Positions 8,416 through 36,120 of a stretch of DNA of 64,000 bases are shown here, piece after piece. Origin of the DNA: Nemertoderma westbladi. Its lineage: Eukaryota; Animalia; Xenacoelomorpha. Each line of letters begins with the position of its first letter. Positions within the stretch are counted from its first letter, which is position 1. The translations under genes and the position numbers were made by a program. The stretch lies in NCBI GenBank assembly GCA_032718475.1, contig JAUCBJ010008295.1, forward strand, positions 62,001-126,000, given 5' to 3'. The notes beneath the pieces are model-generated. The model did not search any database and was not told where the DNA came from. It worked only from the letters and a program-made list of their open reading frames with translations.

Positions 8416-8960
8416 GTGGGAAGGGATTCAAGCAGCCATGAACGTTGGATATTGTGTTGGGTGGGAAGGGATTCAAGCAGCCATGAACGTTGGTTATTGT
8501 GTTGGGTGGGAAAGGATTCAAGCAGCCATGAACGTTGGTTATTGTGATGGGTGGGAAGGGATTCAAGCAGCCATGAACTTTGGTTATTGTGATGGGTGGG
8601 AAAGGATTCAAGCAGCCATGAACGTTGGTTTTTGTGTTGGGTGGGAAGGGATTCAAGCAGCCATTAACGTTGGTTATTGTGATGGGTGGGGAGGGAATTC
8701 AAGCAGCCATGAACGTTGGTTATTGTGTTGAGTGGGGAGGGATTCAAGCAGCCATGAACGTTGGTTATTGTGTTGGGTGGGAAGGGATTCAAGCAGCCAT
8801 GAACGTTGGTTATTGTGTTGAGTTGGAAGGGATTCAAGCAGCCATGAACGTTGGTTATTGTGATGGGTGGGAAGGGATTCAAGCAGCCATGAACGGTGGT
8901 TATTGTGTTGAGTGGGGAGGTATTCAAGCAGCCATGAACGTTGGTTATTGTGTTGAGTTG
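8416..8960. repeat. 45-bp satellite, left part (about 12 copies)
   Basis: Unit TGGGAAGGGATTCAAGCAGCCATGAACGTTGGTTATTGTGWTGRG. It is interrupted at 8961 by an LTR. Confidence 0.97.
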
Positions 8961-10161
8961 TGTAAAAGCCTTTGCTGAATTGCCCCGTTATTTTTATTAT
9001 CTTTTACATTAAAATACTCTGTAGTTGATTTAATAGGTGTAAGAGACCGTATTATTGCTGTATCGGTGTTTTTTAGAGGATCTAAGACCTATTTCCTCTG
9101 TATGTGTACTGTGAAAGGCATAGTTGATGATTCTATGGCAATTCCATGACGCAAAGGGTGATAGCTACTCTTGAACAGTAGTTACTATGACTACGGTTAA
9201 CAGCTGATATTCATACGTGTTGATTTTCTTTGTTCTACGGCGTCTCTCAGTTCAGTCAGCCAATCAGAGCATTTTTATGGCTCTTGTAGAGAAATTTCCT
9301 AGAAATCACGTAATGCTTTATGTGCAGTGTTTACATTCTGTCCTGAGCCAGGAGAGAGCGGCTTGGAAATATTTTGTGCTGTTCTGTTTTTAGCCTAACA
9401 CTAGTAGGCTTAATTATAAGGACATATATCCGTTATCTCAACTCAAATCATAACATACCATACCTAATCAAACACTGTGCATACTTTATATTGTTATACT
9501 GCTATTTACTGTCGGTCCTTCATAATATGGTTGATGAATTATTATATTTGGAATAACGATAAATAACCCCGAAACCCAATATTCTTGATATACCGAAGGT
9601 AAGAGAGAAAGGTTATATATAACGATTGTGACTTATGTTGAAGTGGTTTGAAGTGAATCTAATGTTATTTGATAGACCCTACATGAGTCGGTCCGTGTTC
9701 CTTTTATATGTGACTAAAATCAGTGAAGATCGGCAGATTAGTCTGCAGTATTGTGCAGCATTGTGTATGAGTGAGACTGATAACGAAGCATTTCCTAAAG
9801 AATGAGCCATATATGTGAATTATAACTAAGCCATATCGTTGTGAGTAGTTTAAGTCATAACTCTGTTTATATAGATAGAGCGCCACGTCCTAAAGGAACT
9901 GTTAATATTTCCCGAAGGTGAATAATATTGTCAGAGATTATATAATACTGTCAGTCGAATAATACATTAGGCTTACATAGCAATAAGATTAAGCCGTCGA
10001 ACCCAATCTCCCGGGTATATCCAGCGGGTGAATGATCGCGCACAGATTGGTTTCGACTAGTGTAGTGAATCAAATACTTGTCATAGGCTAAAAGTGATTT
10101 ATTATCTAAAAGACATCCTAATTTGGCGGGTTAAACTGCCAAAGGTCTGAAAGCGCGAACA
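8961..10161 (+). repeat. 5' LTR of element A (1201 bp)
   Basis: TGTAAAAGCC...GCGCGAACA. It matches 23725-24089 + 36121-36961, with about 5 substitutions seen by eye. Confidence 0.96.
9258..9436 (+). promoter_or_regulatory. Putative LTR promoter and start region (CCAAT box, conserved TAGTAGGCTTAA(A)TTATA block, candidate +1 near 9425-9426)
   Basis: AGCCAATCAGAGC at 9258-9270 is conserved in B (35794-35806, minus) although the rest of U3 has diverged. The conserved block lies directly upstream of the PBS-complementary 11-mer. The start site is inferred. Confidence 0.5.
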
Positions 10162-10173
10162 ATAACGGATATA
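10162..10173 (+). other. Non-tRNA primer-binding site of element A, complementary to its own LTR
   Basis: ATAACGGATATA is the reverse complement of TATATCCGTTAT at 9425-9436. There is no TGG next to the LTR. Confidence 0.8.
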
Positions 10174-10529
10174 GCTTCTTTATTGCAGTAAGCAATAAAG
10201 TTGAAAGTACCGGTCAACCGGTAAACCTGAACGGTACATCTGTAGGTCAGTAGGCCCAACTGCCAGAACCGGTACTGCCATAGGTCCGTAGGTCCAACTG
10301 CCAGAACCGGTACTTCTGTAGGTCCGTAGGCCCAACTGTCCTAACCGGTACTTCCAGTATAAGTACATTAGTATTATTCGAATTTGATAATTATATACCG
10401 GTAGGTCTTAGTACTTAATCAGGGAACGGCCGCCCTGGTTTTTTATTGAGATTTTTACTTATTTCTGTCAAGTTTTATTTGTTTGTAGGCCAGTATTGAA
10501 CAGAAGGCGTGTAAGCCTGATCAGATTGT

Positions 10530-11105: not shown

Positions 11106-12416
11106 ATTCAGAGTTTATGCGATTATTCGCAACATTCATTCCCCAAGTTTGTTCCTACAATAATTGTGTTTGTTATACATACCGTTATAGTTAAATTAAC
11201 CCCGGTACTACACGGGCTGCTTGGCGTAGGTAAAGACTGGTGATTTTGTGCACCGGTCACTCCAGCAGATGCCGTGGTTCTTTTAGCTGTTCAAGTATAT
11301 TTAACTACTGATTATATGTTGTACAAGTACTCGTACCTAATTTAGGGTTTAGTATACAGTGCTTTCCGAAAGTAATTAGTGTAGGCATTATATTTGTGTT
11401 GTAAAGTGGTTGATAGGCACGTTCGATTAGCTCTATTAACTTCTAGGTAGGAACACTCCGTGATACATAACGTAGTACCTATAGCGATACGGCTATAGGT
11501 CGTCAGGCGGTGGTATTTTCCTATCTGGACAACGCAGTGTATTTACTACTACGTATTATTTTCAAATACCGCAGTACCCTGTCCGTTGTAATAACCAGAA
11601 TTCTAACCCTTTGTTAGGCTGGTTTGTAGACTTCTTGTAAAATTACCCTGAAAATTCGTATTTTGTGTTTTTGTAAATTTTTGTGTTTATTTAGAGATTG
11701 TAATCTCACCCGAATTGTACGTAATTTGTAGTATTAAGTAACTTAGGTAAATTAGTATTATTTGTTTTAGTGTCTTATAAGTAACACTTCACTGAAAGCG
11801 CACCGCTTTGTGTAGTGATTACTCCCCATAAATAATAACATTTATTTCAAACATCGACAAAACCCATTAAAACGGGTATATATATATTATAAATCAAATC
11901 TAACGATTTATAAATAGTAGGCCTACCATACAACCATTAGGTCTCAATATCAGTTGGATTACTGCTCAAATAACGGTAATAAAGTAAGTAAAGTAACCAA
12001 GTAACCCTAAAATTCAGAAATTCAATTATTTAAAATAATTGATATACCGGTATTTACGATAGGCCTATTATCTTTATTTCTATAAGTTTCGGCTGAAATT
12101 ATACCGGTACTTGTAATTAATTCTAGTCCAGAATTATATATACTATAAACTGTAAGCTGTATACCGGTATTCCCGATAGGCCTATTATATATTTATATAC
12201 ATTTGTGCTAAAATTATACCGGTATTCTGTGATAAACCTAGTCTGTAATAATACTTATATATACAATAAGCATACCGGTATTCTAATATATTATATATAT
12301 CACGCTACACTGAGTAGCAGTATCGGTAATTAATTACTAGGCTAGCAGTTAACACTGAATTACTAGACTTGCTTAGACTGTAATATAGCGGTAGACATTC
12401 AACTGTGTAAACAAAC

Positions 12417-15400
12417 ATGTCTGATACTAAGCAGAACTTGTCAGACAGTTTATTAGATGTAACTATCTGCGACTCAGATAGAGGTGTAGAACCGTCTAGT
12501 CCTAAGTTCAGTTCACCTCCCACTGTGAGGAAGGTCATCCCTCCTGTAGTAATAACAGAACCTAGTCTGGTCCAACATCGTAGGTCTATCATAGGCACTC
12601 GAGCTCAGGTCAAGCGGGACCAAGAAGCAGCGGAACAGCAACAACCCGCGAGCCAAGAACTTATTTCTCAGCGGCCCGACAGCTCCAGTAGTGAAGATAC
12701 GGTAGAACTGATACCCGAACGCGGAGCAAGGATGACGGACGAGGCTTATTCAGATCCCCTTCTCATCCTTCCTGCAGCCGTACTCACTAGGTTATTGATC
12801 GCTGTGGAAGAACACCAGATCGATTGGGCGAGAAGCCAGCGTTCAACTAGAGATAGTTATGCTGGATACACAAGGGAAGAACTGAAGTCCATGGTCGAGT
12901 CGCAATGGAACTTCCCCGGACCCGGACTCCCGTTTGATTTATCAGAAGCTGCCTGGGAAGACATACACCGGATGGGAGTAGCCAAGGAAACCATCGATCC
13001 AGCTGTGTGGAAGAGGTCCGCAGCCGGATACGCACAGGGATTCTTCAACTCTATGGAGAGAGTAGAAAAACAACTGTTACAACAACCTCAAGGACCTCAA
13101 GAGCAGGGACAGCTGCTTTATCAAGTTAGAGAAAGAATTCTGCGAATTAGGCTAATATTATCAGCCTTTGAAGAGGCTTCTAAAAGAAGACAAGACACGT
13201 CGTTGCAAGTTGCCGTAAAGACTTGGTTTCAACGGGTGAGTCGCCAAGTTCAAGGAACAGCTCAGTGGAAAGCTCAGCTGGAGGAGCGCTCAACCCATGG
13301 AGAATCAACAGACGCTACTTTTTCCCAAGTGGAAAGTGAAGCGACGGCAGAGAAGCCGCATAAGAGGGATGCCATTGACATCTATCTGTCAGACTATCAA
13401 CGTTTTTTAGGTGATGACGAGTTGAGGAGAAGGTTAGAGGGACTTAGCCCTAATAGTGAAGGAACCAAGCTTGTGTTGGATGCCATTGATGTGGAAATGA
13501 GGGCTGCGAATCAGGCTAAATTTGATGAACAACTCCGCATCACACGAGTCCAAGAAGAACAAGTAAAGAAAAAACGTATAGAAGACAGAAAGAAAGCAGC
13601 AGTGGTAGCTGCAGAAGCAGAAAGAAAAGCGGCAGCGGCAGAGGCAGCGGCAGAGGCAAAAGTGGCAGAAGCAGAACGGAAAGCGGCTGAAGAAATCACC
13701 CAATTAGAATTGGAAAACATTCAGGAGAATCAAGACTGCATAAATAAACAGTTAACAGCTAGTAATATGCAGATGATGAATCGATCTACTCCCAAAAGGC
13801 AGGGATATACATCATCTGAGGAAGGCGATACCACCGACACTGAAGGCGGAGGAAATCGATCTCGCCTAAGCAGACGTAAAAGAACATTCCACCGTCAGAA
13901 ATTGCCTGATTTGCCTCCAGCTGTTAGAAGGCAACTAAATAACACCAACTTAGCGAGTACAGAACCCACAGACCAAATAATTACAATAGAGAGACTCCCT
14001 ACTATAGTAGATGAGCCTGAAATAATTAGGCCTGTTCCCGAAGCTACCCTTTCGTTCGTAGAGACACCTGTACTCCCTGAACCTACCTCTCAATTCCCGT
14101 TGCACAGCACTAAGCTACCTGTGCCCAGTAGAACAGCCCATGAGACAGTTCATGCTCTGGACTCCGAGCGGAATGTTCATGATTTGTCGCCTGTTGTCCC
14201 TCGTCCGCCCGCTACAACGTTGGCGGATCCCGTTTCGGCGGTTGATTGGGTGGACGAGAGACGGCGGGGGATGGACATTCTCCTCGGAAAGATGGAGGAG
14301 AATCAAAGGCGCTCCTCCCAACAGGTCCGAGAGTTAGAAGGGACTGTTCAACAGTTAAAGGGAACCGTAAAGGAAAGTAGGTTAGAGTTGCAGGAAGTGC
14401 AGCAAAATATCGCGTTAGAACGTGATAAATTAGTAAATTTACAAAAGGGTATACCACCACCCCTTGTAACAATGTGTCAACCTGTTAGGTCTGAAGTATC
14501 TCATGCGCAAGGTGTGGAGCCTACACGCATCTATACTGCTAGCGAAGTAGAAACTCCTATAGTGAACCCTATTAAGGGTAATTATAGACCTGTTGATAAT
14601 GATATTCCATATAGAACGGATCATAATCCGAGAAATTTATATACCGATAACTCGATATTAAATAACACGATGGCCCAAGAAAGTTTTACGCGTCAAATGG
14701 CTAGAACCGAAGCCCGGCAAGCTGTAAAGGTGGGAGAGATTGTAAAGTTCAATGGAGATGAGATGAAATGGTTACCTTTTAATGAATATTACAAAGATAA
14801 CATACAGAACTATGTGCTATCTAATGGAGAGAAACTTAGATACCTCATCGAATGCTTGGAAGGATCTCCCAAGTTAATGGCATTAAAGTTTATTGGACAT
14901 CCAGACGGATTAAGACAAGTTTGGGATACACTAAACATCAGGTATGGTAATAGGAATAACATAGCTGGGTATTTGTATGCAAAGTTGGTAGCGCCCCGAA
15001 AGTTTATTAGCAGCGGAATTATCGAGTTTTCCGATGAGATTCAGGAGATCTGTAGACAATTAGATTGGCTAGGTAAGTCTCAGGAGTATCAGAATGCTAT
15101 GGTTATTAGAGCAGTGGCTTCTACTTTACCGAAGGGTGGAGTAGGTACACGCTGGGATAAGAAAGTGTTATATATGATGGAACAACAACGACGAGACCCT
15201 ACCATGGCTGATCTAATGTCATTCCTAGATGGAGAAGTGAAATTACAGCTCCTGAAACTGTCCAGAGAGAAGACACCGGAAAACAAGGTAAGTGAAAAAC
15301 CCGTCTCTAGGAGAAAGGTAACACCAGTGTGTTATACAGACGACGGCGAAAGCCAGACTTCTCAAGGAGAAGATAGCGGAAAAGACACTGATAGATCTTA

Positions 15401-18400
15401 TTACGTAAATAAAATGCCTAAAGATCAGGTAAGTAAATTCAAGTCTCGAACAAATGACAGGAGAGAACAGGTAAGAAAAACTCCTCCTACGTCTCCCAAG
15501 AGAATTCAGGTGAGAAAGCCCGAAGAAAAAGCAAGTGTACACAATGTGACTCAGAGTAAGGTGAGTAACATCAAACCGAAATGTGCGCTGTGTGACGGGA
15601 CCCACCATTTGAATATGTGTGATAAATTCCTGAAGAAGTCATTAACGGAGAGACGTGAAGTCATGTGGGACAAGCGGTTGTGTTATAATTGCCTCAGACA
15701 AGGACATCAACGGCGAACCTGTTACTCAGACATAAGGTGTGCAAAGTGTGGTGCGAAACATCATATCTTGTTGCACGCTGAATTCGATCGAAATAGTCCT
15801 AATCAGGTAAGTGATTCCGAACTACATGTCCAATTCAGTGATGTGAACGACACTGATCAATCTGAGATGGAAGGATTCTATACGGACGAGTTCTCCGACG
15901 AAAACGAATCCTGTTACATGATAAATACCGCAGTGTATCGAGCACTCACATATGAAAAAGATACAGACAGCGACTTCACTCTAACTACTTCTGAGCGACA
16001 ACCATCGTGGAAAGCACCAACTTCCAATGTAGGAATCCGAGAATTTCCTGTAGTCCAGTTACGGGTCCATGGACCTCAGAAGAGCTATATAGTGAACGCC
16101 CTCCTGGACTCCGGCAGCACAGGAACATTCATTGATAAAGAACTAGCCGAAGACATCTTCGCTGGACAACCTAAGTTCCGAACCAAGCTAAATATGTCAG
16201 GCATTATGCAAGTTTGGAAATCTACAGTAACAGCTGATTATTATGTAGGCGCGTTGTCCACCCCACAAGACGAACTAGGAGAACATAGCATAAGGTCGGT
16301 GAAAATGGTGGCTATAAAGAACTTCGCTACTACTCAAGCAGACCTTTATAATTGGGACGAGGATGAGAGCATCCAACATCTTAAGATACCTCGATTCCAG
16401 ACTGATTATCCTGGAGTGCAAATACTCATCGGCCAAAACGCGCATGAGGCGCTGGAGACATTGGAGAAACGGCCTGCTCAACCGCAGCCACTACAGACCT
16501 ATGCGGTAAGAACTAGAGTAGGTTGGTACTTTACTGGCCCTTCCCGTAGAACACTCAGAGAAAGACTACCGCAAGAGCGCGTCTACCAGGTGAGTGAATG
16601 GGAAGATGATACTAGTGAGGGAGACGATTTAACTGAGGGAACCCCATACTCCTCAGATAACGACGACGTTCACCAGCTTTTTGATGAGGAGAATACCATC
16701 GATCTCCTTAAGGAAAACGAGGCTTGGCAAAACCAAGTGAACTTATGTCAACTTCTTTATCCAACTGAACGAGAAGCTTATAACGACGAGTTAAATGACG
16801 TCATTGAGCGTTGTAATGCCAAGACTCGAGATGAACATGCCGTAAGATTCTTTACGCAAGAGGCGGTAGAGCCCAATTCCTACGATAAAGCCTTGTCGGT
16901 GGAAGAGGAAAGGGCCAAGCAGATCCAAGAGACAACTACACGTTTCCTCAAAGATCAAGGTAGGTATGAAGTCGGTCTACCTTTCCGCAAGAGAGAACCG
17001 AAGTTCATCAATAACAGACCCTTGGCGGAAAAAAGAATCGCGCAACTCCATCGACGCCTTACGGCTAATTCTTCAGCTAAAGCAATGTATCAAACACAGC
17101 TGGAGAAATTTATTAGTAAGGGATACGCGGAGAGAGTACCGGAAGAAACACCTGTGACTGAAAGAACGTATTACTTAACTCACCATTACGTTCCTAAACC
17201 CGGTAAGCCACATGAAGTGAGAGTAGTGTTTGATGGCTCCGCTCTTTACATGGGTCAATCCCTTAACTCTGAATTGTTACCCGGACCCAACTTACTTCAA
17301 TCTTTGTTGGGAATTCTTTTAAGATTGAGACAATATTCGATTGCTTTCGCCTCCGATATAGAAGGCATGTTCTTACAAGTCAAGGTGTTAGATAGGGATC
17401 GAGATAGTTTACGATTTCTGTGGTGGCCCGAAGGAGACCTCAACATGAAACCGGTGGAGTACTGGATGACCATCCAGGCCTTTGGGATAATCTCAAGCCC
17501 TTCCAACGCCTGTTCGGTAGTGCGTACCACTGCAGAGGACAACCGAGAGGCCTTCTCTAAGGAAGTGATCGACAACATCAAGCGAGACATATACATGGAC
17601 GACAATCTGAAGTCCCTTCCATCAGTTGAGGAAGCCATTGAGGTCGCTAAAGGAACGGTAGAGTGCTTAAAAAGAGGTGGGTTTCGATTAACGAAATTCA
17701 CCAGCAACTCCCGTGAGTTTCTGGAGTCGATCCCTGCGGAAGATCGAGGGGCGAAAGATCTAGATTTGATCAAAGATGATCTGCCAGAAACCAAGACACT
17801 CGGCTTGAAATGGGACACAGAGCGAGATATCCTGTTTTTCCAGCTAAAACAGCGAGATAATCCAGTTCGAACCAAACGGATTTGCTTAAGTATACTGAGC
17901 ACTTATTTCGATCCATTGGGATTTATTAGCCCAGTTATATTGATTGCTCGTAGTTTGGTACAACAAATGTGGCTTGAAAACCACTCATGGGACGATCCAC
18001 TTAAGGGAGAATTATTAAAGAAGTGGATGAAATGGGAAGATTCTCTGCCGGCTATCGAGGATTTTATAATTTCCCGTTCATATTTTGGTCATGTTCTCCC
18101 TACGTATTCCTATCAACTCCATGTGTTTGGAGACGCCAGCGATATGGGAATAGGTATAGTAGCCTATCTAAGAGTGGAAACTCCGGATGGAATCAAAGTC
18201 GCCTTAGTTACTTCTAAGGCATTAATCAACAACAAGTTGAAAGTTCCTCGAGCGGAGTTAAAAGCGGCTCTATACGCTACAGCCATCGGCCGGAATGTAA
18301 CAGAACAGATTGACTATCCATTAGAGAAAACTGTCTATTGGACCGACGCTTTACTCGTGTTAGAGTATATAACCAATGAAGTCTGTCAGTTCAGCGTCTT

Positions 18401-20477
18401 CGTTACCAACAGAGTAGCCATCATACTTAGTCGCACGACGATGGACCAATGGAGACATTGCCCCGGAACGATTAATCCAGCAGACATCGCCTCCCGAGGA
18501 GCGACTCCAAAGGAATTGGTAAATACTCCCGAATGGTTAGGTGGACCCGACTTTCTCTACAGAGAAGAAGAAGAATGGCCTCCCCATCTCACAACAGCAG
18601 AGATCAGACAGGCCAAGGGAGCGGAGAAAGTTAAACCCAAAACTCGAGCGAGTAAATCGAAGTTGTTTAAACCTGCGGTTGATCTATCTGTATTATTTAC
18701 TTCCGGAGAGGATGCTTTGGATCAGAAACCCACAGCCACGGATAAAGAAGTCTTAGAAATCCGTGACAAGGATTGGAAATCTGGAATACCAGATATTTCG
18801 CAAGGACTCTCACCTCTCTTGCAGAGAGTGATACGTCATTACAGTTCCTGGAATCGGCTCTGTAAAGCCGTCACCTATTTAAAACGATGTTTTCATCATC
18901 GTTACTCCGGGACAAAGACCAATAGTGATGATGCTCCATCAACATCTGCAAGAGTCCATGTTGTTAAAGATCTTCCTAAATATAAGATATCCGACAGGTT
19001 TCTAAAGGAGAAGATCAGTTACCAGGAGCATGATGAAACCAACAAACAGATGCTGAGACTCCTACAATGCTATGAGGATCCCGATAAGTATTTCCTGTTG
19101 TTAAGAAATCCGCAGATGCGCTTAAGGGATCGCTTCTCTAGTACCATGATAGATGGGTTAATACGTGTTGGAGGCAGGCTCACCAACGCCCCCTTATCCT
19201 TTGACACTAAGTTTCCCATACTCATTAGAAATCTTGACATACAAATCAAGATGATTGTAGATGTTCATAGCAAACTGTATCATGCTGGAAGAGAACGAGT
19301 TCTGAGCGAAATTCGAACTCGCTACTATTTTTATAAACCCCGTAGGGCTCTGAACCAAGTCCTTAGGAACTGCATACCCTGTAGGAAAGCATTCAGTAGG
19401 CCTTTGACACAGCGAGAGGCAGAATTACCTAGGGAAAGAGTAAGCTTCTATGAACCACCCTTTACTAATACCGGTGTGGATTTATTTGGCCCTATTGAAG
19501 TATATCGTGCCCGGACTATAGTCAAGAGATGGTGTGTCATCTTCGTTTGTATGACTTGTAGAGCTATCCATCTCGATATGGTAAACGATCTATCCACCAA
19601 CAGCTTCGTGTTGAGTTTACGACGACAGATCGCTCGCTTCGGAACCAGTAACACGATGAGATCGGATAAGGGAACGAACTTCATTGGCGCCAACAACGAA
19701 ATTCAAGCTTTCGTAAAGGACTGGAACAAAAGACAGGTGGACGATCAGCTAAGGATAACAGCGTCTAGCTGGACCTTCAACGCCGCCGACGCCCCTTGGT
19801 GGGGAGGAAGTTGGGAGAGATTGATTAGGAGCGTGAAGACTGCGTTCCACTTTATTGTGCCTTGTCGCGCTTATCTCACCGACGAACTATTGCGGACGTT
19901 AATGGAGGAAATCGCCGCTTATCTCAACGAAAGACCGCTTATGCCAGTCTCTTCAAGTCCTGATTCCCTGGAAGCGCTAACACCCGCGCACTTTCTACTG
20001 AAGAAACCCGTAGCCATGCTCCCACGATCGGAGATCACAGACGGAGACGAGTACTGCCGTCGAACCTGGCAACTTATGCAGTTGCTATCCCGTCGTTTCG
20101 CTGACCATTTCGAGAAACATTACCTGCCCACTCTACAACTTCGAACTAAGTGGTTTGCGCAGCAAGAAAACGTCAGCGCTGGAGACATGGTGCTTATTGT
20201 GGACCCCGATCTCCCACGTAAGCGATGGCAAACAGGACGTATCATCGAGACTCATATCTCGAGCGATGGTTTGGTGCGATCAGTAGAACTCGTCGTCATG
20301 CGGCGTAACTTTAAGAAACCAGGGATAGTCTTTGAGACTCAACAGCTCAACCGCCCAGTGGGTCGTTTATGTTTACTGGAAAGAGACAGAGAGCTCTCCG
20401 GAAACTATGGAAGGCAAGAAACTCTTCCCACGACCACTTCCCTAATCCAACCGACATCTAGGGACTCCCCAACTTAA
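12417..20477 (+). CDS. BEL/Pao Gag-Pol polyprotein (2686 aa, uninterrupted)
   Basis: Gag KFNGDEMKWLPF (DUF1759-like). Three BEL-type Zn knuckles (CALC..H..C, CYNC..GH..C, CAKC..HH..LH). Protease ALLDSGS. RT DIEGMF/YMDD. RNase H VFGDAS/PRAEL/YWTDA/NPAD. Integrase HHCC, GVDLFGP, RSDKGTNF, WWGGSWERL. Confidence 0.97.
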   Translation: MSDTKQNLSDSLLDVTICDSDRGVEPSSPKFSSPPTVRKVIPPVVITEPSLVQHRRSIIGTRAQVKRDQEAAEQQQPASQELISQRPDSSSSEDTVELIPERGARMTDEAYSDPLLILPAAVLTRLLIAVEEHQIDWARSQRSTRDSYAGYTREELKSMVESQWNFPGPGLPFDLSEAAWEDIHRMGVAKETIDPAVWKRSAAGYAQGFFNSMERVEKQLLQQPQGPQEQGQLLYQVRERILRIRLILSAFEEASKRRQDTSLQVAVKTWFQRVSRQVQGTAQWKAQLEERSTHGESTDATFSQVESEATAEKPHKRDAIDIYLSDYQRFLGDDELRRRLEGLSPNSEGTKLVLDAIDVEMRAANQAKFDEQLRITRVQEEQVKKKRIEDRKKAAVVAAEAERKAAAAEAAAEAKVAEAERKAAEEITQLELENIQENQDCINKQLTASNMQMMNRSTPKRQGYTSSEEGDTTDTEGGGNRSRLSRRKRTFHRQKLPDLPPAVRRQLNNTNLASTEPTDQIITIERLPTIVDEPEIIRPVPEATLSFVETPVLPEPTSQFPLHSTKLPVPSRTAHETVHALDSERNVHDLSPVVPRPPATTLADPVSAVDWVDERRRGMDILLGKMEENQRRSSQQVRELEGTVQQLKGTVKESRLELQEVQQNIALERDKLVNLQKGIPPPLVTMCQPVRSEVSHAQGVEPTRIYTASEVETPIVNPIKGNYRPVDNDIPYRTDHNPRNLYTDNSILNNTMAQESFTRQMARTEARQAVKVGEIVKFNGDEMKWLPFNEYYKDNIQNYVLSNGEKLRYLIECLEGSPKLMALKFIGHPDGLRQVWDTLNIRYGNRNNIAGYLYAKLVAPRKFISSGIIEFSDEIQEICRQLDWLGKSQEYQNAMVIRAVASTLPKGGVGTRWDKKVLYMMEQQRRDPTMADLMSFLDGEVKLQLLKLSREKTPENKVSEKPVSRRKVTPVCYTDDGESQTSQGEDSGKDTDRSYYVNKMPKDQVSKFKSRTNDRREQVRKTPPTSPKRIQVRKPEEKASVHNVTQSKVSNIKPKCALCDGTHHLNMCDKFLKKSLTERREVMWDKRLCYNCLRQGHQRRTCYSDIRCAKCGAKHHILLHAEFDRNSPNQVSDSELHVQFSDVNDTDQSEMEGFYTDEFSDENESCYMINTAVYRALTYEKDTDSDFTLTTSERQPSWKAPTSNVGIREFPVVQLRVHGPQKSYIVNALLDSGSTGTFIDKELAEDIFAGQPKFRTKLNMSGIMQVWKSTVTADYYVGALSTPQDELGEHSIRSVKMVAIKNFATTQADLYNWDEDESIQHLKIPRFQTDYPGVQILIGQNAHEALETLEKRPAQPQPLQTYAVRTRVGWYFTGPSRRTLRERLPQERVYQVSEWEDDTSEGDDLTEGTPYSSDNDDVHQLFDEENTIDLLKENEAWQNQVNLCQLLYPTEREAYNDELNDVIERCNAKTRDEHAVRFFTQEAVEPNSYDKALSVEEERAKQIQETTTRFLKDQGRYEVGLPFRKREPKFINNRPLAEKRIAQLHRRLTANSSAKAMYQTQLEKFISKGYAERVPEETPVTERTYYLTHHYVPKPGKPHEVRVVFDGSALYMGQSLNSELLPGPNLLQSLLGILLRLRQYSIAFASDIEGMFLQVKVLDRDRDSLRFLWWPEGDLNMKPVEYWMTIQAFGIISSPSNACSVVRTTAEDNREAFSKEVIDNIKRDIYMDDNLKSLPSVEEAIEVAKGTVECLKRGGFRLTKFTSNSREFLESIPAEDRGAKDLDLIKDDLPETKTLGLKWDTERDILFFQLKQRDNPVRTKRICLSILSTYFDPLGFISPVILIARSLVQQMWLENHSWDDPLKGELLKKWMKWEDSLPAIEDFIISRSYFGHVLPTYSYQLHVFGDASDMGIGIVAYLRVETPDGIKVALVTSKALINNKLKVPRAELKAALYATAIGRNVTEQIDYPLEKTVYWTDALLVLEYITNEVCQFSVFVTNRVAIILSRTTMDQWRHCPGTINPADIASRGATPKELVNTPEWLGGPDFLYREEEEWPPHLTTAEIRQAKGAEKVKPKTRASKSKLFKPAVDLSVLFTSGEDALDQKPTATDKEVLEIRDKDWKSGIPDISQGLSPLLQRVIRHYSSWNRLCKAVTYLKRCFHHRYSGTKTNSDDAPSTSARVHVVKDLPKYKISDRFLKEKISYQEHDETNKQMLRLLQCYEDPDKYFLLLRNPQMRLRDRFSSTMIDGLIRVGGRLTNAPLSFDTKFPILIRNLDIQIKMIVDVHSKLYHAGRERVLSEIRTRYYFYKPRRALNQVLRNCIPCRKAFSRPLTQREAELPRERVSFYEPPFTNTGVDLFGPIEVYRARTIVKRWCVIFVCMTCRAIHLDMVNDLSTNSFVLSLRRQIARFGTSNTMRSDKGTNFIGANNEIQAFVKDWNKRQVDDQLRITASSWTFNAADAPWWGGSWERLIRSVKTAFHFIVPCRAYLTDELLRTLMEEIAAYLNERPLMPVSSSPDSLEALTPAHFLLKKPVAMLPRSEITDGDEYCRRTWQLMQLLSRRFADHFEKHYLPTLQLRTKWFAQQENVSAGDMVLIVDPDLPRKRWQTGRIIETHISSDGLVRSVELVVMRRNFKKPGIVFETQQLNRPVGRLCLLERDRELSGNYGRQETLPTTTSLIQPTSRDSPT

Positions 20478-23714: not shown

Positions 23715-23724
23715 CTGGGAGCGG
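23715..23724 (+). other. Short polypurine-tract-like site of element A
   Basis: CTGGGAGCGG abuts the 3' LTR. The same ATCCCATTTTCTGGGAGCGG precedes B's 3' LTR (25344-25363, minus). Confidence 0.7.
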
Positions 23725-24089
23725 TGTAAAAGCCTTTGCTGAATTGCCCCGTTATTTTTATTATCTTTTACATTAAAATACTCTGTAGTTGATTTAATAG
23801 GTGTAAGAGACCGTATTATTGCTGTATCGGTGTTTTTTAGAGGATCCAAGACCTATTTCCTCTGTATGTGTACTGTGAAAGGCATAGTTGATGATTCTAT
23901 GGCAATTCCATGACGCAAAGGGTGATAGCTACTCTTGAACAGTAGTTACTATGACTACGGTTAACAGCTGATATTCATACGTGTTGATTTTCTTTGTTCT
24001 ACGGCGTCTCTCAGTTCAGTCAGCCAATCAGAGCATTTTTATGGCTCTTGTAGAGAAATTTCCTAGAAATCACGTAATGCTTTATGTGC
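23725..24089 (+). repeat. 3' LTR of element A, left fragment
   Basis: Matches 8961-9325 and ends in the TSD TGTGC. Confidence 0.95.
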
Positions 24090-25343
24090 TGTACGCGCTT
24101 TTGGAAGACCTTTAGCAGTTTAACCTGCCAAAATTTATATGTCTTTTGGTTTATCAATATACTTTAGAAGATGACAAATATTTAATACCAATAAACACAA
24201 CATTAGCAGAAGCCAGCCTAGTGCGCGTCCATTCACCCGCTGGATATTCCCGGGAGACTGGATTCTGAGGGCTTAGATTATTATTGCAGTGAAGCTTACT
24301 GTATTATTCGATTGATCGTTAATAAATAATTTCTGACTAATATTATTCACTTTCGGGAAATATTAACAGTTCCTTTAGGACGTGGCGCTCTATCTAAGTA
24401 AACAGAGATATGACTTATACTAATCACAACGGTAAGTCGGTAAGGCTTATGATTCACGTATGAGGCGCATTCTTTAGGAAATGCTTAGTTATCGGTCACA
24501 ATCATGCACACTACCGGTAACACACAATACTGCTCATTAATTTGCCGCCCGTCAATGTATTTTATCATATATAAAGGGAATAGCAACGGACCAATGTAGT
24601 GCTTATCAAATAGCATTAAATTCACTACAAACCACAACAATATAAGTCGCAATCGCTATATATATAACCCGTCTCTCTAACCTGTAGTGTATCAAGAAAA
24701 TTGGGAAATTTGGGTTCTTTATATATGTTCTCCAAATAATATTCAACCAAACACAACAGTAAATAGCAGTATAATAATGTATGTTGAACAGTAATAACAA
24801 CAAAGTATTGAATTGTGAATGGATTTGACTGATAACAGCCATACGCTCTATAATTTAAGCCTACTAATGTTTCTTCTTAAAGTATGAAAAGAATTAACTC
24901 TAGAGCCGGTGTTTCTGGCTTAGACAGCAATAACAACAAAGTACCAAGTAAAAAACAGTAAGACTGAACACTCTCCTTATGATCGGCCGAAAAGCTACAC
25001 GTCGACAGGAAAAATCGCTCTGATTGGCTCAAGCCAAACAAAGAACCATGCGTCCAATGGCTGTTTCCATGTCAGCAACCAGCTGTTAGATGTCGTAATA
25101 TGAATCATCACGGCTAAGCTGTGAAAGGTAGTTGGTGCATTGCAGGCTTTTTGCCTTACCATGTCCGCCAAAACACGTATATAGCAGAATGACTTTTATG
25201 TCCGTTAAAACACCTGTAACGGTACCTTGAGGGCGAGGGGAATATTTATACAGTTAGAGAACCTTTTTAGAGTATTCCAGCGCCTGGGGGGAAACTGGAT
25301 TGCGAAGCAAAAGGGCCAGTTATATCCCACAGAAGCTTTTACA
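24090..25343 (-). repeat. 3' LTR of element B (1254 bp)
   Basis: Near-identical to 34867-36120, with about 4 substitutions seen by eye. Confidence 0.95.
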
Positions 25344-25421
25344 CCGCTCCCAGAAAATGGGATTTGAGTCTATACAATATACAAAATCACAGTTTCTAAT
25401 ATACGTAAATACTCTAAACAG

Positions 25422-25754
25422 TTAGTCTTTCTTGCGCGGACGGCGTTTACGCAGTTTTTTAAAGCTAGCCAGAGTCCTTTCCTCTTTGGGGCGAGCCACT
25501 TTACAAGGAGGACTATAACTCCTGGGTGAAGGGTGCAATATGATTGCATCAGAGGGTGTAGGATTATGGTCGGTGTATCCGCCAGTCGAAGTACCGGGTT
25601 GATTGACATCAACGTCAGGTGAGAGGGGTCTAACGGCTTTGAGAGCTCGTTTCAAGACAGCCGCTCTTACGGGTCCTTTACGAGTGGTCTGAACGAGGGC
25701 CGTGGGTGGACCATAGGCAGTTAGAAACCTCCGGGGTTTAATGGTCCTTTCCAA
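25422..25754 (-). CDS. Basic-tailed small ORF of B (possibly the frameshifted C-terminus of ORF2)
   Basis: It ends KKLRKRRPRKKD. The homologous tail (KKLRKRRLRKKD*) is at about 23485-23646 in A. Confidence 0.4.
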   Translation of the reverse strand: MERTIKPRRFLTAYGPPTALVQTTRKGPVRAAVLKRALKAVRPLSPDVDVNQPGTSTGGYTDHNPTPSDAIILHPSPRSYSPPCKVARPKEERTLASFKKLRKRRPRKKD

Positions 25755-26710
25755 CTCGCGTTCGCGGGCTCGGTATTCGTAAGGCCGTCGATATACTTCC
25801 TGTAACTCGATATGCGTGATTTCTGTTCGACAGAAGCGAATAGATAAGGATGGAACGCATAAATTCCTTCGTAAGCGCGTCCAGGATAATAGCGATGGCG
25901 CGAATCACGATGTAAATCAGCGTTCGCTTCCCAAGCTCTAATGTAACGTAGTGTGATCATTTCATCTACGCTTTCCAAATCGCGATTAAAAGGGCAATCG
26001 AAACTGGCGTGTCCCTTTAGTTGACAATGGTGACATTGAGTCATAAATTGAGGGCAAACCGCAAAAATATGCAAATTATTAAATCCGCAATACGCGCAAT
26101 AAATTTCCATCGTCGGTTGTTCGTGGAAATAGGAACAGCGGACGTTTGTGTCCATGGGCGTAACATGGTCTCTCGATGCGCATAACCGACAACGTTGCCG
26201 AGAAACATAGTTGGCATGGCGATAATCGTACGCAGTGAGACACTGTGGACCTTGATACCATTCTAGGATGTAATCGTTGTCGCTGTTCCGAGCGCGATAG
26301 GCTGAATCTCCTCAGATTCTAGGCATATTGGTTCGTCTTCCCAGTCTGTTACGAATAGAATTTTCGTGATCTATTCTCGGTTTATCGTTACGACGCCGCT
26401 GGGTATGATATTTAAATAGAACCATTTCCCTTTCGGTGTCTACATCGTCCGTATCATGTAAATCGATAGGATGGCCGGTAGTTAGGAGGTCCATATACGT
26501 ATTATTACGATGCGTATAGCGAGCGGTGAATTTTCGATAGTCCAATTCACGCGTAAGTTGCTCTTGGGACGTCGGCAGTTCGATATAACGACCATCGTCC
26601 TCCGTAATGGTTGGATCGGTTTCACCGCGTATCAAGCTATCCACAAATGCTTGCAAAGGTAGAGTATATCGCTCCTTGATACCAAGATCATCTTCTATCA
26701 ACTCCGTCAT
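25721..26710 (-). pseudogene. Accessory ORF2 of element B with one in-frame TGA; zinc-knuckle C-terminal half
   Basis: ORFs 26710-26312 and 26155-25721 are in the same frame, and the linker is open after the TGA. Motifs are CRLCASRDH, CAYCGFNNLHIFAVC and CHHCQLKGHASFDC. Confidence 0.75.
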
Positions 26711-28338
26711 ATCTGCTATCTGAGTTTGTTAATATCGAAATGAGTTTATGTTTAGGCGAGCGGACGTCTCTGCCCACCTCTCTTTGCCCCCGGACAGTGG
26801 GATCCTCAGCGCCGATGTACCGTTGTCGCGGTGTTTACGCCAACATGTAGCAACATTACGACAACGATAACCGGCACAAGTCACTCCACTGTCCATCCCA
26901 AAGGCTTGAATCCACTTTAGGTTCTTTCTATATGAGAGTTGGGTTACTTTCACAATTGCGACTAGCTACTGTAAACACACCTTAGCAGTAACATTCACTT
27001 ACAAACGCACAAATTCCACACAACTGTCACCAATTGTACATATACAGGCCATTTGTCCGTTAGTCAGTGCCTTCCAGAATGTCACGTTATTACTGTGTAT
27101 CCTTGGATACTAACAGTGTGCTATATTCTCTATGCTATGCAATGGGACAAGCTTTCTATTGTTCTTTTAACTTGTTTCTAATTCTAGCGTGGGTGTTGCT
27201 ATGGTGACATTATGGAATGCTAGCGGTAGAATTAGGGTAATTCTCATGCATACAGATCTGGGATGCTATTTAATAATAATTCTTTAATTGTCAATATCCT
27301 CTTTATGCATGATTTTATTAATTTTATCGGCTATTGACTATATGTTGGAGATTCTCGCACTCTAATACACTCAATAGGATGAATCTCCGCTCCCATGATC
27401 TATTAATTAATGGAATTTTGGGAATGTTATAAATTGTACAAAATGACAATTTATGCAATTCATTTAAAATATGAATTTGAATTTATTCCCGTGAATTTTA
27501 TTATTTGATGTTAAAATTGACACAATTTGATTCCAGAGCAAGTCTGGGGACATAGGATCCTTAATTCTATAAAATTGTCTTTTAAGAGTATCGGTAAGGG
27601 CTGCGATATCTTAATTGACTAGAAATTTCAAAGGACCTGAATTTTACAGATTTTTACTAAATATTAAATTAATATTTAAGATGGGCACCGATTTATTCCA
27701 GAACTTGTCTGGGGACGTTAACCACTGATTCTAGAATTTGTCTTTCAAGTATATCGGTGGGTGCCGCGATATCTTAATCGACTAGAATTACAGATGGTCA
27801 AAAGGTTTAACAGATTTATTTGCGTTTTACGCTACTGTTATAGGGACATCACGCTACTATAAGTATTATTTAATATAAGGTAGAAGAGCAATATCGCACG
27901 AAGCAATGTCAGTGTGAAGAGGCAAGTCGTTTCCAAGGTCTACCCAGAGCTTGGTTTAGCCGAGGCACGAGGATCTGAACTTTGCATTCCTAATACTCTG
28001 CCTACCAATAATACTTGAATATAGTAGTGGCTTTATTGTACTTTAATAAGTACGGACATTTCATCTTACTGTAGTCACGTATTTATAATATGATACGGAC
28101 AGTAAGGAAAGAGAAAAATAATTATTTCTCGCCGTCCCACTAAATATATATTATAAGCAATTACGCACGCAATAAACACTAATATATTGCACTAATCTAC
28201 TAAATAATCACTAAAATAACATTCTACTAAATAAAATTAAAGAAAACGATTATAATAAAATTACATAATAATACATACATAAATATAAAATAAAAACAAA
28301 TATAAAATGATATAGTCACACGCCCACTCCACATGCTA

Positions 28339-31300
28339 TCACGTTATGGAGTCCCTAGATATTTGTCGGATTAGGGAAGTAGTCGTAGGAAGAGTATCTT
28401 GCCTTCCATAGTTTCCGGACAGTTTTCGGTCTCTTTCCAGTAAACATAAACGACTAGCTGGGCGATTGGGTGGTTGTGTTACTTTCTCCGCTCCCTTGGC
28501 CTGTCTAACCTCCGCCGTGGTAAGATGAGGAGGCCATTCTTCTTCTTCTTTACTTAAGAAGTCGGATCCACCTAACCAGCCTGGAGTATCTATCAGTTCT
28601 TGAGGAGTTGCTCCTCTGGAAGCGACGTCGGCTGGATTAATCGTCCCAAGGCAATGTCTCCATTGATCTACATTGGAGTTAATATCGTCATTATCTGAGG
28701 AGTATGGTGTTCCCTCAGTTGGATCGTCCACATCACTGCTCTCCACTTCCCATTCCTTTACTTGGTATACCTGTTGTTGAGGTAATCTCTCTTTGAGAGT
28801 TCTACGGGAAGGGCCAGTGAAGTACCAACCTACTCTAGTTCTTACCGCATAGGTTTGTAGTGGCTGCGGTTGAGCAGGCCGTTTCTCCAATGTCTCGAGC
28901 GCCTCATGCACGTTTTGGCCGATGAGTATTTGCACTCCAGGATAATCTGTCTGGAATCGAGGTATCTTAAGATGTTGGATGCTCTCATCCTCGTCCCAAT
29001 TATAAAGATCTGCTTGAGTAGTAGCGAAGTTCTTTATAGCCACCATTTTTACTGACCTTACACCTTGTGTTCCTAACTTATCCTGGGGGGTGGACAACAC
29101 ACCTACATAGTAATCTGCCGTTAGGGTAGATTTCCAAACCTGCATAATTCCTGACATATTCAATTTAGTCCGGAACTTGGGTTGTCCAGCAAAGATATCT
29201 TCGGCTAGTTCTTGATCGATGAATGTTCCTGTGCTGCCGGAGTCAAGGAGGGCGTTCACTATGTAGCTTTTGTTAAGACCGTGAACTCTTACTTGAACTA
29301 CAGGAAATTCTCTGATTCCTACGTTGGAAGCTGGAGCTTTCCAAGATGGTTGTTTGTCAAAGGTGGTTGGGGGGAACTCCGTGTCGGTGTCTTTTCGTAC
29401 GTAAGTGCTCGATACACTGCGGTATTTATTAGATAACAGGATTCGTTGGCATCGGAGAATTCGTCCGTATAGAATCCTTCCCACTCAGAACTTTGGTCAG
29501 TGTCGTTCACATCACTGAATTGGACATGTGATTTGGGCTCACTTACCTGACTCGGGCTGTTTCGTTCGAATTCCGTGTGCAACAAGCTATGATGTTTCGC
29601 GCCGCACTTAGCACACCTTGCGTCAGAGTAACAGGTTCGCCGCTGGTGTCCGCGTCTGAGACAGTTATAACATAACCGCTTATCCCACAGGACTCCACGT
29701 CTATCTGCCATGGATTTCTTTAGGAATTCTGCACACGCACTCAAACGGTGGGGCCCGTCGCACAGCGCACATTTTGGTTTGATGTTACTCACCTTAACTT
29801 GGTTAACGTTCTGCACTCTCGTTCTTTCTTCGGGCTTTCTTCCGTGAATTCTCTTAGGAGACGTAGGAGGAGTTGTTGTTACCTGTTCTCTCCTGTCACT
29901 GGTTCGAGACTTGTATTTACTTACGTCTTTATAGGTCTTGTTGTCATAGTAAGATTTTGCTGTGTCTTTCCCGCTGTCCTCTTCTTGAGAAGCTTGGCTT
30001 TCGCCGTCGTCAGTATAACACACTGGTATTATCCTTCTCCTAGAAACGGGTTTCTCACTTACCTTATTTTCCGATGTTTTCTCTCTGGACTGCCTTATGA
30101 GTTGTAATTTTACTTCACTATCTAAGAAAGACATGAGATCAGCCATGGTAGGACTTCGTCGTTGTTGTTCATTCATGTACAACACTTTCTTGTCCCAGCG
30201 TGTACATACTCCACCCTTTGGTAAAGTAGAGACTACGGCTCCAATAACCATGGAACTCTGATATTCATGCGACTTACCTAACCAGTCCAGTTGTCTACAG
30301 ATCTCTTGAATTTCATCTGAAAACTCTATAATCCCGCTACTAAGGAAGTGTCTGGGGGCTACTAATTTTGCATACAAATACTTAGCTATGTTATCCTTGT
30401 TACCATACCTGATGTTTAATGTATCCCAAACTTGTCTTAATCCATCTGGATGTCCAATAAACTTTAACGCCATTAACTTGGGAGGTCCTTCCAAGCACTT
30501 GATGAGGAACCTAAGTTTCTCTCCGTTAGATAGCACAGAGTTCTGTATGCTGTCTTTGTAATATTCGTTGAAAGGTAACCATTTCATTTCGTCTCCATTG
30601 AATTTGACGATCTCTCCCACTTTGACCGCTTGGCGGGCTTCTGTTCTAGCCATCTGACGCGTAAAGCTTTCTTGGGCCATCGTGTTATTTAATATCGAAT
30701 TATCGGTATATAAATTTCTCGGATCATTATCAGGTCTATAGGGAATATCATTAATAACAGGTCTATAATCACCCTTAATAGGGTTTGTTATAGGAGTTTC
30801 AACTTCACTAGCAGTATAGATGCGTGTAGGCTCCACACCTTGCGCATGTAATACTTCAGACCTAACAGGTTGACACAATGTTACAGGGGGTATTGGTATG
30901 CCCCTTTGTATATTGACTAATTTATTGCGTTCTAGTGCGATACTTTGCTGCACTTCTTGCAACTCTGCTCTACCTTCCCTCACTGTTCCCTTAAGTTGGT
31001 GGACAGTCTCCTGCATCTGTCCTAGCAGGAGATTCATCCCCCACCGTCCCTCTTCCACCCACTCAACCGCCGAAGCGGGAGTCGCCAACATAGTAGCGGG
31101 CTGACGCGGGACGACGGGAGACAAATTTTTGATTTCTCTCTCTGCTATCTGGACAGGGATACTTGCATGGACTGTTCCACCGGGTACAGGTAGTGTGGTA
31201 CTATGTAAAGGGAATTTAGAGTTAAGCTCTGGAAGTGCAGGGGTCTCTAGCACAGAAGTGACTTTGGGAACAACAGGCCTAATTATTTCAGGTTCATCGA

Positions 31301-32609
31301 CTATAGTAGGGAGTCTTTTGACCTGGATAAATTGTTCTATGGGTTCTGCACTACCTAAGTCTGTGCTAGTTAGCTGTCTTTTAACAGCTGGGGGCAAATC
31401 AGGCAATTTGCGACGGTAAGATGTTTTTCTACGCCTACTTAGATGAGATCTATTTCCTCCGCCTTCAGGATCGGTGGTCTCGCCTTCCTCCGAGGATGTG
31501 TATCCCTGGCGCTTGGGAGTAGATTTTCTCATCATCTGCATTTGATTAGCAGTAAACTGTTTATTTATACTGTCTTGTGTCTCTTGCAGATTTTCCAACT
31601 CCAGTTGGGTAGTCTGCTCAGAGGCTCTCCGTTCTGCTTCGGCCACTGCCCTTTCCGCCTTTGCTTCTGCCGCCGCTGCCTTTCTTTTTGCTTCTGCTTC
31701 TGCCGCCGCTGCCTTTCTTTTTGCTTCTGCTTCTGCCGCTGCTGCCCTTCCTTTTGCTTCTGCTTCTGCCGCTGCTGCCCTTGCTGCTATTCTTTCTGCT
31801 TCTACTTCTGCCGCCGCTGCCTTTCTTTCTGCTTCTGCTTCTGCCGTAGCCGCCGCCTTTTGTTCCTCTATCCTTCTTTTCTTTATTTGTTCTTCTCGGA
31901 CTCTAGTGAGGCGGAGTTTTTCATCACATTCAGCTTGGTTTGCAGCTAACATTTCGGCATCGATTGCGTCCAACACAAGCTTGGTTCCTTCACTATTAGG
32001 GGAAAGTCCAGACAGCCGTCTCCTCAACTCTTCGTCTCCTAGGAATCGCTGATAGTCGGACAAATAAATGTCGATAGCGTCTCTAGTTCGCGGCTTCTCT
32101 GCTGATGTTAATTCGCTTTCCACTTCGCTTTCCACCTCGCTTTCCACTTCGCTTTCCACCTCACTTTCCACTTCGCTTTCCACCTCACTTTCCACTTGAG
32201 AAGAAGTGGCGTCAGTTGATTCCCCACAGGCTGGCCGCCCATCATAAACCGTATCCGCCATCTTCGCTCCGCGTTCTGGCGTCCGCTCAACAGTATCCGA
32301 ACTACTGGAGCTATCGGGCCGCTGAGAACCAGGTTCTTGGCTAGGAGGTTGCTGCTGTTTTATAGCTTCTTCTTGATCCCGCTTGACTTGGGCCCGAGTG
32401 CTTATGGCAGACCAACGGCGCTTCGCTAACTTCGCAAATTGCGAAATCTTTTCTACCAACCTAGGTTCTGTCACAACCACTGCAGGGGTTGCCCTTCTTA
32501 CAGTATGAGGGGTTTCAGACCTCGGTCTGGGATTCTCTACACTTTGATCTGAGAAACAGGCTGTTGTTTCTAGGAGACTATCTGACAGAGTTTGCCTTGT
32601 GTCAGCCAT
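28339..32609 (-). pseudogene. Gag-protease of element B with a frameshift near 29395 and two large pol deletions
   Basis: ORF 32609-29319 is Gag. ORF 29484-28339 carries ALLDSGS, jumps to DQWRHC..NPADVASRG, and then to the terminal RLCLLERDR. One A is missing relative to A at YEKD. Confidence 0.9.
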
Positions 32610-34855: not shown

Positions 34856-34866
34856 ATGACTGTTAT
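34856..34866 (-). other. Non-tRNA primer-binding site of element B, complementary to its own LTR
   Basis: Minus-strand ATAACAGTCAT pairs with minus-strand ATGACTGTTAT at 35619-35609. Confidence 0.8.
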
Positions 34867-36120
34867 TGTACGCGCTTTTGGAAGACCTTTAGCAGTTTAA
34901 CCTGCCAAAATTTATATGTCTTTTGGTTTATCAATATACTTTAGAAGATGACAAATATTTAATACCAATAAACACAACATTAGCAGAAGCCAGCCTAGTG
35001 CGCGTCCATTCACCCGCTGGATATTCCCGGGAGACTGGATTCTGAGGGCTTAGATTATTATTGCAGTGAAGCTTACTGTATTATTCGATTGATCGTTAAT
35101 AAATAATTTCTGACTAATATTATTCACTTTCGGGAAATATTAACAGTTCCTTTAGGACGTGGCGCTCTATCTAAGTAAACAGAGATATGACTTATACTAA
35201 TCACAACGGTAAGTCGGTAAGGCTTATGATTCACGTATGAGGCGCATTCTTTAGGAAATGCTTAGTTATCGGTCACAATCATGCACACTACCGGTAACAC
35301 ACAATACTGCTCATTAATTTGCCGCCCGTCAATTTATTTTATCATATATAAAGGGAATAGCAACGGACCAATGTAGTGCTTATCAAATAGCATTAAATTC
35401 ACTACAAACCACAACAATATAAGTCGCAATCGCTATATATATAACCCGTCTCTCTAACCTGTAGTGTATCAAGAAAATTGGGAAATTTGGGTTCTTTATA
35501 TATGTTCTCCAAATAATATTCAACCAAACACAACAGTAAATAGCAGTATAATAATGTATGTTGAACAGTAATAACAACAAAGTATTGAATTGTGAATGGA
35601 TTTGACTGATAACAGTCATACGCTCTATAATTTAAGCCTACTAATGTTTCTTCTTAAAGTATGAAAAGAATTAACTCTAGAGCCGGTGTTTCTGACTTAG
35701 ACAGCAATAACAACAAAGTACCAAGTAAAAAACAGTAAGACTGAACACTCTCCTTATGATCGGCCGAAAAGCTACACGTCGACAGGAAAAATCGCTCTGA
35801 TTGGCTCAAGCCAAACAAAGAACCATGTGTCCAATGGCTGTTTCCATGTCAGCAACCAGCTGTTAGATGTCGTAATATGAATCATCACGGCTAAGCTGTG
35901 AAAGGTAGTTGGTGCATTGCAGGCTTTTTGCCTTACCATGTCCGCCAAAACACGTATATAGCAGAATGACTTTTATGTCCGTTAAAACACCTGTAACGGT
36001 ACCTTGAGGGCGAGGGGAATATTTATACAGTTAGAGAACCTTTTTAGAGTATTCCAGCGCCTGGGGGGAAACTGGATTGCGAAGCAAAAGGGCCAGTTAT
36101 ATCCCACAGAAGCTTTTACA
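34867..36120 (-). repeat. 5' LTR of element B (1254 bp)
   Basis: Minus strand TGTAAAAGCTT...GCGCGTACA; the termini are similar to A's LTR. Confidence 0.95.

Follow-up and report, generated by a model that had tools for sequence, protein, structure and literature searches.

Introduction

The closest described parallel to the locus reported here is the fission yeast retrotransposon Tf1, in which, according to the available part of PMC7175516, the element's RNA pairs through its initial 11 bases with the primer-binding site, and RNase H cleaves it between bases 11 and 12. The site of Tf1 starts with ATAAC, and about half of the Tf1 cDNA carries this site copied as single-stranded DNA (PMC11042837, available in part). 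The 'pretzel' described for this element includes two flanking duplexes (bioRxiv 10.1101/2022.12.06.519325, available in part). Self-priming is listed for Tf1/sushi, Tcn1 and the TAR lineage of Copia in the accessible text of PMC6317226, which with the TAR lineage already treats it as having arisen more than once, and the criterion used there is complementarity between a site beginning 0-5 bases past the LTR and 10 or more bases in the 5' LTR of the same element. For BEL/Pao elements, the ICTV profile gives an 18-nt site for tRNA-Arg or tRNA-Gly and a size of 4.2-10 kb, and it describes their replication as poorly understood (PMC8742986).

No paper on BEL/Pao self-priming was found in our search of the literature, outside which lay subscription journals, Repbase, GyDB entries and supplements. 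The available parts of PMC4600332, PMC3601003, PMC5341516 and PMC6934838 make no link between self-priming and BEL/Pao, and primer, PBS and tRNA go unmentioned in PMC3118150 and PMC554778. What appears to be new here is an apparent self-priming signature in a superfamily defined as tRNA-primed, together with a possible primer-masking rod in the LTR. If this reading is correct, BEL/Pao would be the third superfamily with such a mechanism and tRNA-independent priming would be a recurrent solution among LTR elements. Host tRNA fragments would have no hold on elements of this kind, which would also be overlooked by annotation tools that depend on a tRNA site.

Two related BEL/Pao elements, one nested within the other

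The window, by which we mean the whole 64-kb stretch of DNA analysed, contains two related LTR retrotransposons: A on the plus strand and B on the minus strand, nested within A by insertion into A's 3' LTR. Their parts are as follows.

8956..8960 and again 36962-36966, plus strand: 5-bp target-site duplication of A, AGTTG
8961..10161, plus strand: 5' LTR of A, 1201 bp, TG...CA, with 5 differences from its own 3' LTR
12411..20477, plus strand: gag-pol of A, a single open frame of 2688 aa
22108..23253, plus strand: extra ORF of 381 aa ahead of the 3' LTR, partly retained in B (82% over 128 aa)
23717..23724, plus strand: purine-rich tract preceding the 3' LTR of A
23725..24089, plus strand: left part of the 3' LTR of A, which is split by B
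24090..25343, minus strand: 3' LTR of B, with an 11-mer copy at 24842-24832 that carries one A-to-G change at 24839
25344..34855, minus strand: internal region of B, in which the parts corresponding to A's RT, RNase H and integrase are missing
34867..36120, minus strand: 5' LTR of B, 1254 bp, with 4 differences from its own 3' LTR; B has a 5-bp target-site duplication, GCACA
36121..36961, plus strand: right part of the 3' LTR of A, holding the second 12-mer copy at 36225-36236

The gag-pol frame of A contains DUF1759, three CCHC-type knuckles, a protease, an RT with YMDD, an RNase H with D-E-D, an integrase with H2C2 and D-D-E, and DUF5641, and the catalytic motifs of protease, RT, RNase H and integrase are all present and in the correct order. 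Pfam matches on A (Peptidase_A17 at 9e-36, DUF1759, DUF5641 and Integrase_H2C2) are the same set as on its best protein homologues. These Pao-type domains, with the catalytic motifs in Gag-PR-RT-RH-IN order, uphold the assignment to BEL/Pao made in the initial annotation. As in Belpaoviridae, this domain set and order is found in a single gag-pol frame between 1.2-kb TG...CA LTRs with a purine tract, and the LTR features expected of BEL/Pao (0.2-1.2 kb, TG...CA, purine tract, target-site duplication) are present, B's 1254 bp being slightly over the range. Unlike Belpaoviridae, A has no 18-nt tRNA-Arg/Gly site, is ~16 kb long when B is left out (versus 4.2-10 kb) and carries an extra ORF of no known family, since Pfam, sequence and atlas searches with the 381-aa ORF at 22108-23253 all returned no match. 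The polyprotein of A exceeds the ~2000 aa of most relatives because of a low-complexity N-terminal extension of ~770 aa ahead of DUF1759 (12417-14700). The leader (10174-12410) is unusually long at 2.2 kb and includes 38-bp and 289-bp tandem repeats; its first 250 bases are near-identical in A and B.

Judged by protein identity, the A/B family is isolated: its protein relatives are all distant (28-43% identity in the best 120), and the RT-RNase H-integrase region of A reaches at most 41% identity among the best 150 library matches. Viral contigs gave no match to the family by protein, alignment or LTR motif, metagenomes gave zero exact matches to the conserved LTR motif, and there was no Rfam match within 8900-12500.

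A and B are ~82-87% identical across long internal stretches; as relatives of one family, they are not independent cases. Since the LTRs of each pair differ at only 5 (A) and 4 (B) positions and both elements have 5-bp duplications, both moved recently, and both versions of the primer-binding site described below were therefore carried by recently mobile elements. In the case of B, which lacks RT, RNase H and integrase, this must have been movement in trans.

The sequence after each LTR is complementary to the element's own LTR

The features that bear on priming lie at the following positions.

9258..9270, plus strand: CCAAT block kept in both elements, the rest of U3 having diverged
9402..9413, plus strand: conserved TAGTAGGCTTAA block, predicted base of an LTR rod (9407-9412 with 9827-9832)
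9425..9436, plus strand: candidate self-primer of A, 12 bases, exact complement of 10162-10173
10162..10173, plus strand: putative primer-binding site of A, right after the LTR's CA and without TGG
34856..34866, minus strand: putative primer-binding site of B, right after the LTR's CA
35609..35619, minus strand: candidate self-primer of B, 11 bases

The initial annotation had reported that the sequence following each LTR is the complement of a stretch within that LTR, and this is what we find. In A, 10162-10173 is the reverse complement of 9425-9436 at 12 of 12 bases, with a single occurrence in the LTR, and on the minus strand 34866-34856 of B is the complement of 35619-35609 at 11 of 11. The two 11-mers differ at three of 11 positions, as had also been reported, and all three pairs are compensated in the site with none broken; pairing A's site with B's LTR, or B's site with A's LTR, gives only 5-6 bases. 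Both sites begin ATAAC, and the first base of the duplex is precisely the one that follows the terminal CA of the LTR. A primer 3' end must sit right past the LTR end in order to produce that LTR end. The CCAAT box noted upstream of the 11-mer is likewise present, at 9260 in A (165 bases upstream) and at 35804 in B (185 bases). In the 3' LTR of B, the change at 24839 places a G.U where an A-U would stand against the site, a state that could be an intermediate through which compensated changes pass.

Both the complementarity and the covariation are genuine and lie far beyond chance. From base composition, such a match is expected 2.5e-4 times per LTR in A and 8.4e-4 times in B. Empirically, none of 13,471 internal positions of A reaches 12 bases (one reaches 11) and eight of 9,411 internal positions of B reach 11, and the probability that the three changes fall on partner positions with the right bases is ~2e-4. 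A coincidence would be helped by the AT-rich LTRs and by the relatedness of A and B, which are not independent; set against the two expectations, the further factor of ~2e-4 for the compensation and the identical register and offset in both elements, it is a negligible explanation.

The TGG with which a tRNA's CCA end would pair was said to be missing, and it is absent from the first 12 bases past either LTR; the 18-nt tRNA-Arg/tRNA-Gly site of BEL/Pao is thus not found there, and no tRNA gene lies within the 64-kb window. By the complementarity criterion given above, A has 12 and B has 11 complementary bases at offset 0. As in Tf1 and Tf2 of Schizosaccharomyces pombe, Tj1, Tf1/sushi and Tcn1 (Ty3/gypsy chromoviruses), so far as the available parts of the sources describe them, the sites of A and B lie right after the LTR's CA, are matched by ~11 bases of the element's own LTR and have no tRNA match, and with the site of Tf1 they share the first five bases, ATAAC. 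Unlike Tf1/sushi, A encodes a BEL/Pao polyprotein with Pao-type Pfam domains and has no chromodomain match; by this sequence criterion, A and B would work like Tf1-type self-priming elements without belonging to the Tf1 group. Self-priming in the plant Ty1/copia TAR lineage (Houba, Osr-1) has likewise been inferred from complementarity between site and LTR alone (PMC6317226, available in part), although A and B belong to another superfamily.

A putative self-priming cycle

We infer, with a probability of roughly 0.7, that A and B prime minus-strand DNA synthesis with their own LTR RNA, taken from the 5' LTR. Of the initial annotation's interpretation, self-priming is the part that stands as the best supported, through the complement, the covariation and the inability of a tRNA 3' end to pair; its proposals of a transcript start at 9425/9426 and of an independent evolution of the mechanism in this lineage go further than the sequences carry, the latter for reasons that come from the relatives described below. 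The transcript would start at or slightly upstream of the 11-mer (~9413-9426), and the 11-mer would then pair with the site across ~725 bases. A cut just behind the 11-mer, after 9436, probably made by the element's RNase H, would free a 3'-OH from which RT would copy U5-R before jumping to the 3' R, and at plus-strand strong stop the new site would be made as a copy of the primer. Since the site would be re-templated from the primer in each cycle, site and LTR would stay in step and the three compensated changes would need no separate selection; the perfect covariation would in this way be explained without two tRNAs.

The covariation also bears on the proposal that a host RNA, such as a tRNA half or another small RNA, acts as the primer and that the LTR 11-mer is a regulatory mask held in step with the site by selection. 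Such a primer would be in keeping with the tRNA-Arg or tRNA-Gly priming that the ICTV profile gives for the family (PMC8742986) and with the half-tRNA primers without a 3' CCA match that exist in Copia lineages (PMC6317226, in its available part). However, two host RNAs differing at three of 11 bases would be needed, with matching LTR changes each time, neither site has a TGG, and the tRNA-type TGGTCC that is recognisable in two of 40 relatives is absent in A and B, so that we consider host-RNA priming rather unlikely.

Where the transcript begins determines the form that self-priming would take. A start no more than some ten bases away from the 11-mer has a fair claim, at somewhat less than even odds, and a start further upstream, which would make a longer primer, is more doubtful. 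The latter would still be compatible with self-priming, because the candidate primers of relatives lie at splice junctions 192-322 bases into the LTR. No TATA box is present 25-30 bases upstream of the 11-mer. At the usual TATA spacing, a TATA-like motif at 9415 would place the start near 9445, just past the 11-mer; only the 3' LTR copy would then be in the RNA, and for it to prime it would have to be cleaved and brought to the site in an arrangement that is circular or involves two RNAs. In A this motif is followed some 30 bases on by an initiator-like TCAAATC, which also follows the 11-mer in B. B has TATAGA, however, and the spacing is not kept; moreover, that RNA would lose R and its poly(A) tail through the cut, folding predicts that the rod described next locks up the 3' copy, and the literature, as far as the sources are available, yielded no precedent. 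A start beyond the 11-mer is, on balance, quite improbable.

A predicted LTR rod and start-dependent folding

When each LTR is folded alone, a rod is predicted at 9407-9832 in A and 35639-35220 in B, which also pairs with the 11-mer. The predicted arms and the structures near the site are listed here.

9779..9832, plus strand: predicted 3' arm of the rod (9809-9816 with 9422-9429; 9779-9785 with 9431-9437)
35233..35240, minus strand: predicted rod arm of B, pairing with 35623-35616
9980..9986, plus strand: complement of the sequence just past the primer site, a possible flanking duplex (7 bases in A and 10 in the corresponding stretch of B)
10036..10041, plus strand: predicted to form a 6-bp duplex with 10153-10158, just ahead of the primer site, in which B has one compensated change
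10178..10200, plus strand: 9-bp hairpin closely following the primer site, the same in both elements

The rod has z=-3.4 in A and -3.6 in B against 25 shuffles each, for a region picked after the fact, and a U3 control has 0.25. Between A and B, the helix 9422-9429:9809-9816 shows three compensated changes, one one-sided change and no broken pair, and the pair 9424:9814, which lies upstream of the 11-mer, is among those compensated. Across the whole rod, compensated changes are not above the null (P=0.13-0.74) and broken pairs are fewer than the null (P=0.015-0.03), a deficit confounded by local conservation. Taken together, these predictions give us moderate confidence in the rod.

The richness of leader and LTR in predicted conserved structure, and the second covarying partner of the 11-mer, would also suit a structural role for the pairing, in packaging, dimerisation or translation control, with priming by another route. 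The position of the duplex argues against this, as it starts at the base after the LTR's CA, where a primer 3' end must sit, and no other primer site is visible; we regard a purely structural role as unlikely.

Returning to self-priming, folding calculations put the cost of imposing the primer-site duplex at 2.9-4.2 kcal/mol for RNA that includes the TAGTAGGCTTAA block. For A, the predicted probability of primer-site pairing is 0.96-0.98, at a cost of 0, when the transcript starts at 9415-9426, versus 0.02-0.11 for starts at 9340-9400. For B, the cost falls from ~4 to 0.4-0.8 kcal/mol without the block and the pair probability is 0.14-0.41; primer-site pairing is not the minimum-energy fold of B, and its probability depends on the 3' end chosen, being 0.35 with one end and 0.0 with a longer one. 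Folding thus favours a transcript start after the conserved block (9415-9426), and the block may be more than a promoter element, namely the foot of an RNA rod. According to this model, RNA that contains the upstream conserved block, such as the 3' LTR copy, would have its 11-mer masked by the rod (9407-9832), and the 11-mer would stay accessible in a transcript starting after the block. Masking of the 3' LTR primer copy would be the simplest use of the rod. Unlike Tf1, so far as the available sources describe it, A and B have a loop of ~725 bases and a predicted LTR rod that would compete for the primer, and a three-duplex 'pretzel' is only weakly indicated, the 7- and 10-base complements past the site competing with a perfect local hairpin.

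Splice-junction complements in distant BEL/Pao relatives

A metagenome scan yielded 72 BEL/Pao loci at 30-45% identity, 40 of which had enough upstream DNA and were tested (three were too short and 29 others were outside the test). In eight of the 40, representing seven families, the site is complementary over 11-15 bases to the exon-exon junction that removal of a GT...AG intron from the locus's own LTR would create; the cross-locus control gave 4 of 160.

L010, L011, L013, L019, L022, L025, L030 and L046, 5' regions: loci with a splice-junction complement

A further locus, L045, has a 10-base splice-junction complement by eye. Six of the eight loci have a known LTR start; in these the splice donors lie 192-322 bases into the LTR, two of them with a TATA-like motif ~140 bases upstream, and the splice-type primer is likely, from its position, to be internal to the RNA. 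A tRNA-type TGGTCC site was recognised in two of the 40 relatives, most others being uncallable since their contigs end inside the LTR.

Like the eight marine splice-junction loci, A and B have a non-tRNA site complementary to their own LTR RNA. Unlike those loci, in which the complement appears only after removal of the LTR intron and mostly begins 2-3 bases past the CA, the match in A and B is contiguous and at offset 0. A splice-made primer was considered for A and B and ruled out: the complement is contiguous, and no spliced form is longer. Among the relatives, contiguous matches of at least 11 bases are not above the control (3/40 own versus 6/200 cross). Possible contiguous 11-base self-primers, within the control rate and from one subclade, are seen in L067 (226-236 with 392-402) and L051 (215-225 with 452-462), each preceded by a TATA-like motif and followed by AATAAA, in loci with putative LTR ends.

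In a FastTree pol tree of 59 rows, built with no named BEL/Pao reference elements, the splice-type loci all fall in one 49-row clade (support 99), and A forms a long branch with no firm placement outside this clade; the two tRNA-type loci also lie outside it. With self-complementary sites spread over a large group of related loci, and A on a long branch beyond that group, the suggestion that self-priming evolved independently in A's lineage is not borne out; as far as these sequences go, a shared and an independent origin of the sites are both possible. A more comprehensive reading would join two proposals: that self-priming works through a start-dependent RNA switch, in which the rod keeps the primer concealed both in the 3' LTR copy and in RNA started upstream and releases it in the genomic transcript only, and that self-priming, whether contiguous or splice-built, is normal across a large marine BEL/Pao clade. 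We offer this combination tentatively, as something that may well not hold in full.

Variation of the family in public DNA runs

Six public runs from four studies contain the stretch or part of it, none of them recorded as RNA. Contigs of four sets across 9250-10350 include many diverged copies, and the bin that holds the 11-mer (9398-9434) is covered far above its neighbours in X1, X3 and X5, where summed contig depth is not equivalent to copy number. The commoner variant has other letters at site positions 10162 and 10166, amounting to 53-69% of the depth in X1 and X3 for the site side, which was the side read; ATAAC is therefore not family-wide. The full comparison of site and LTR, of the kind made for A and B, covers two related copies. 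This pair consists of a coding and a non-coding element whose primers are compensated by nature, and it offers exact coordinates for a test.

Surroundings of the elements in the window

A sits inside a 45-bp minisatellite array (8416-8955 and 36966-40776). An open frame at 2-1321 has an FVDD motif and a GIY-YIG-like end and no Pfam match, and resembles a fragment of a Penelope-like retroelement. On the minus strand, a GPCR sequence of the rhodopsin family at 4905-5810 contains an in-frame stop and is probably a pseudogene. At 47897-49660, 176 copies of the 10-bp satellite CCAGTCCAGT account for a stack of long ORFs.
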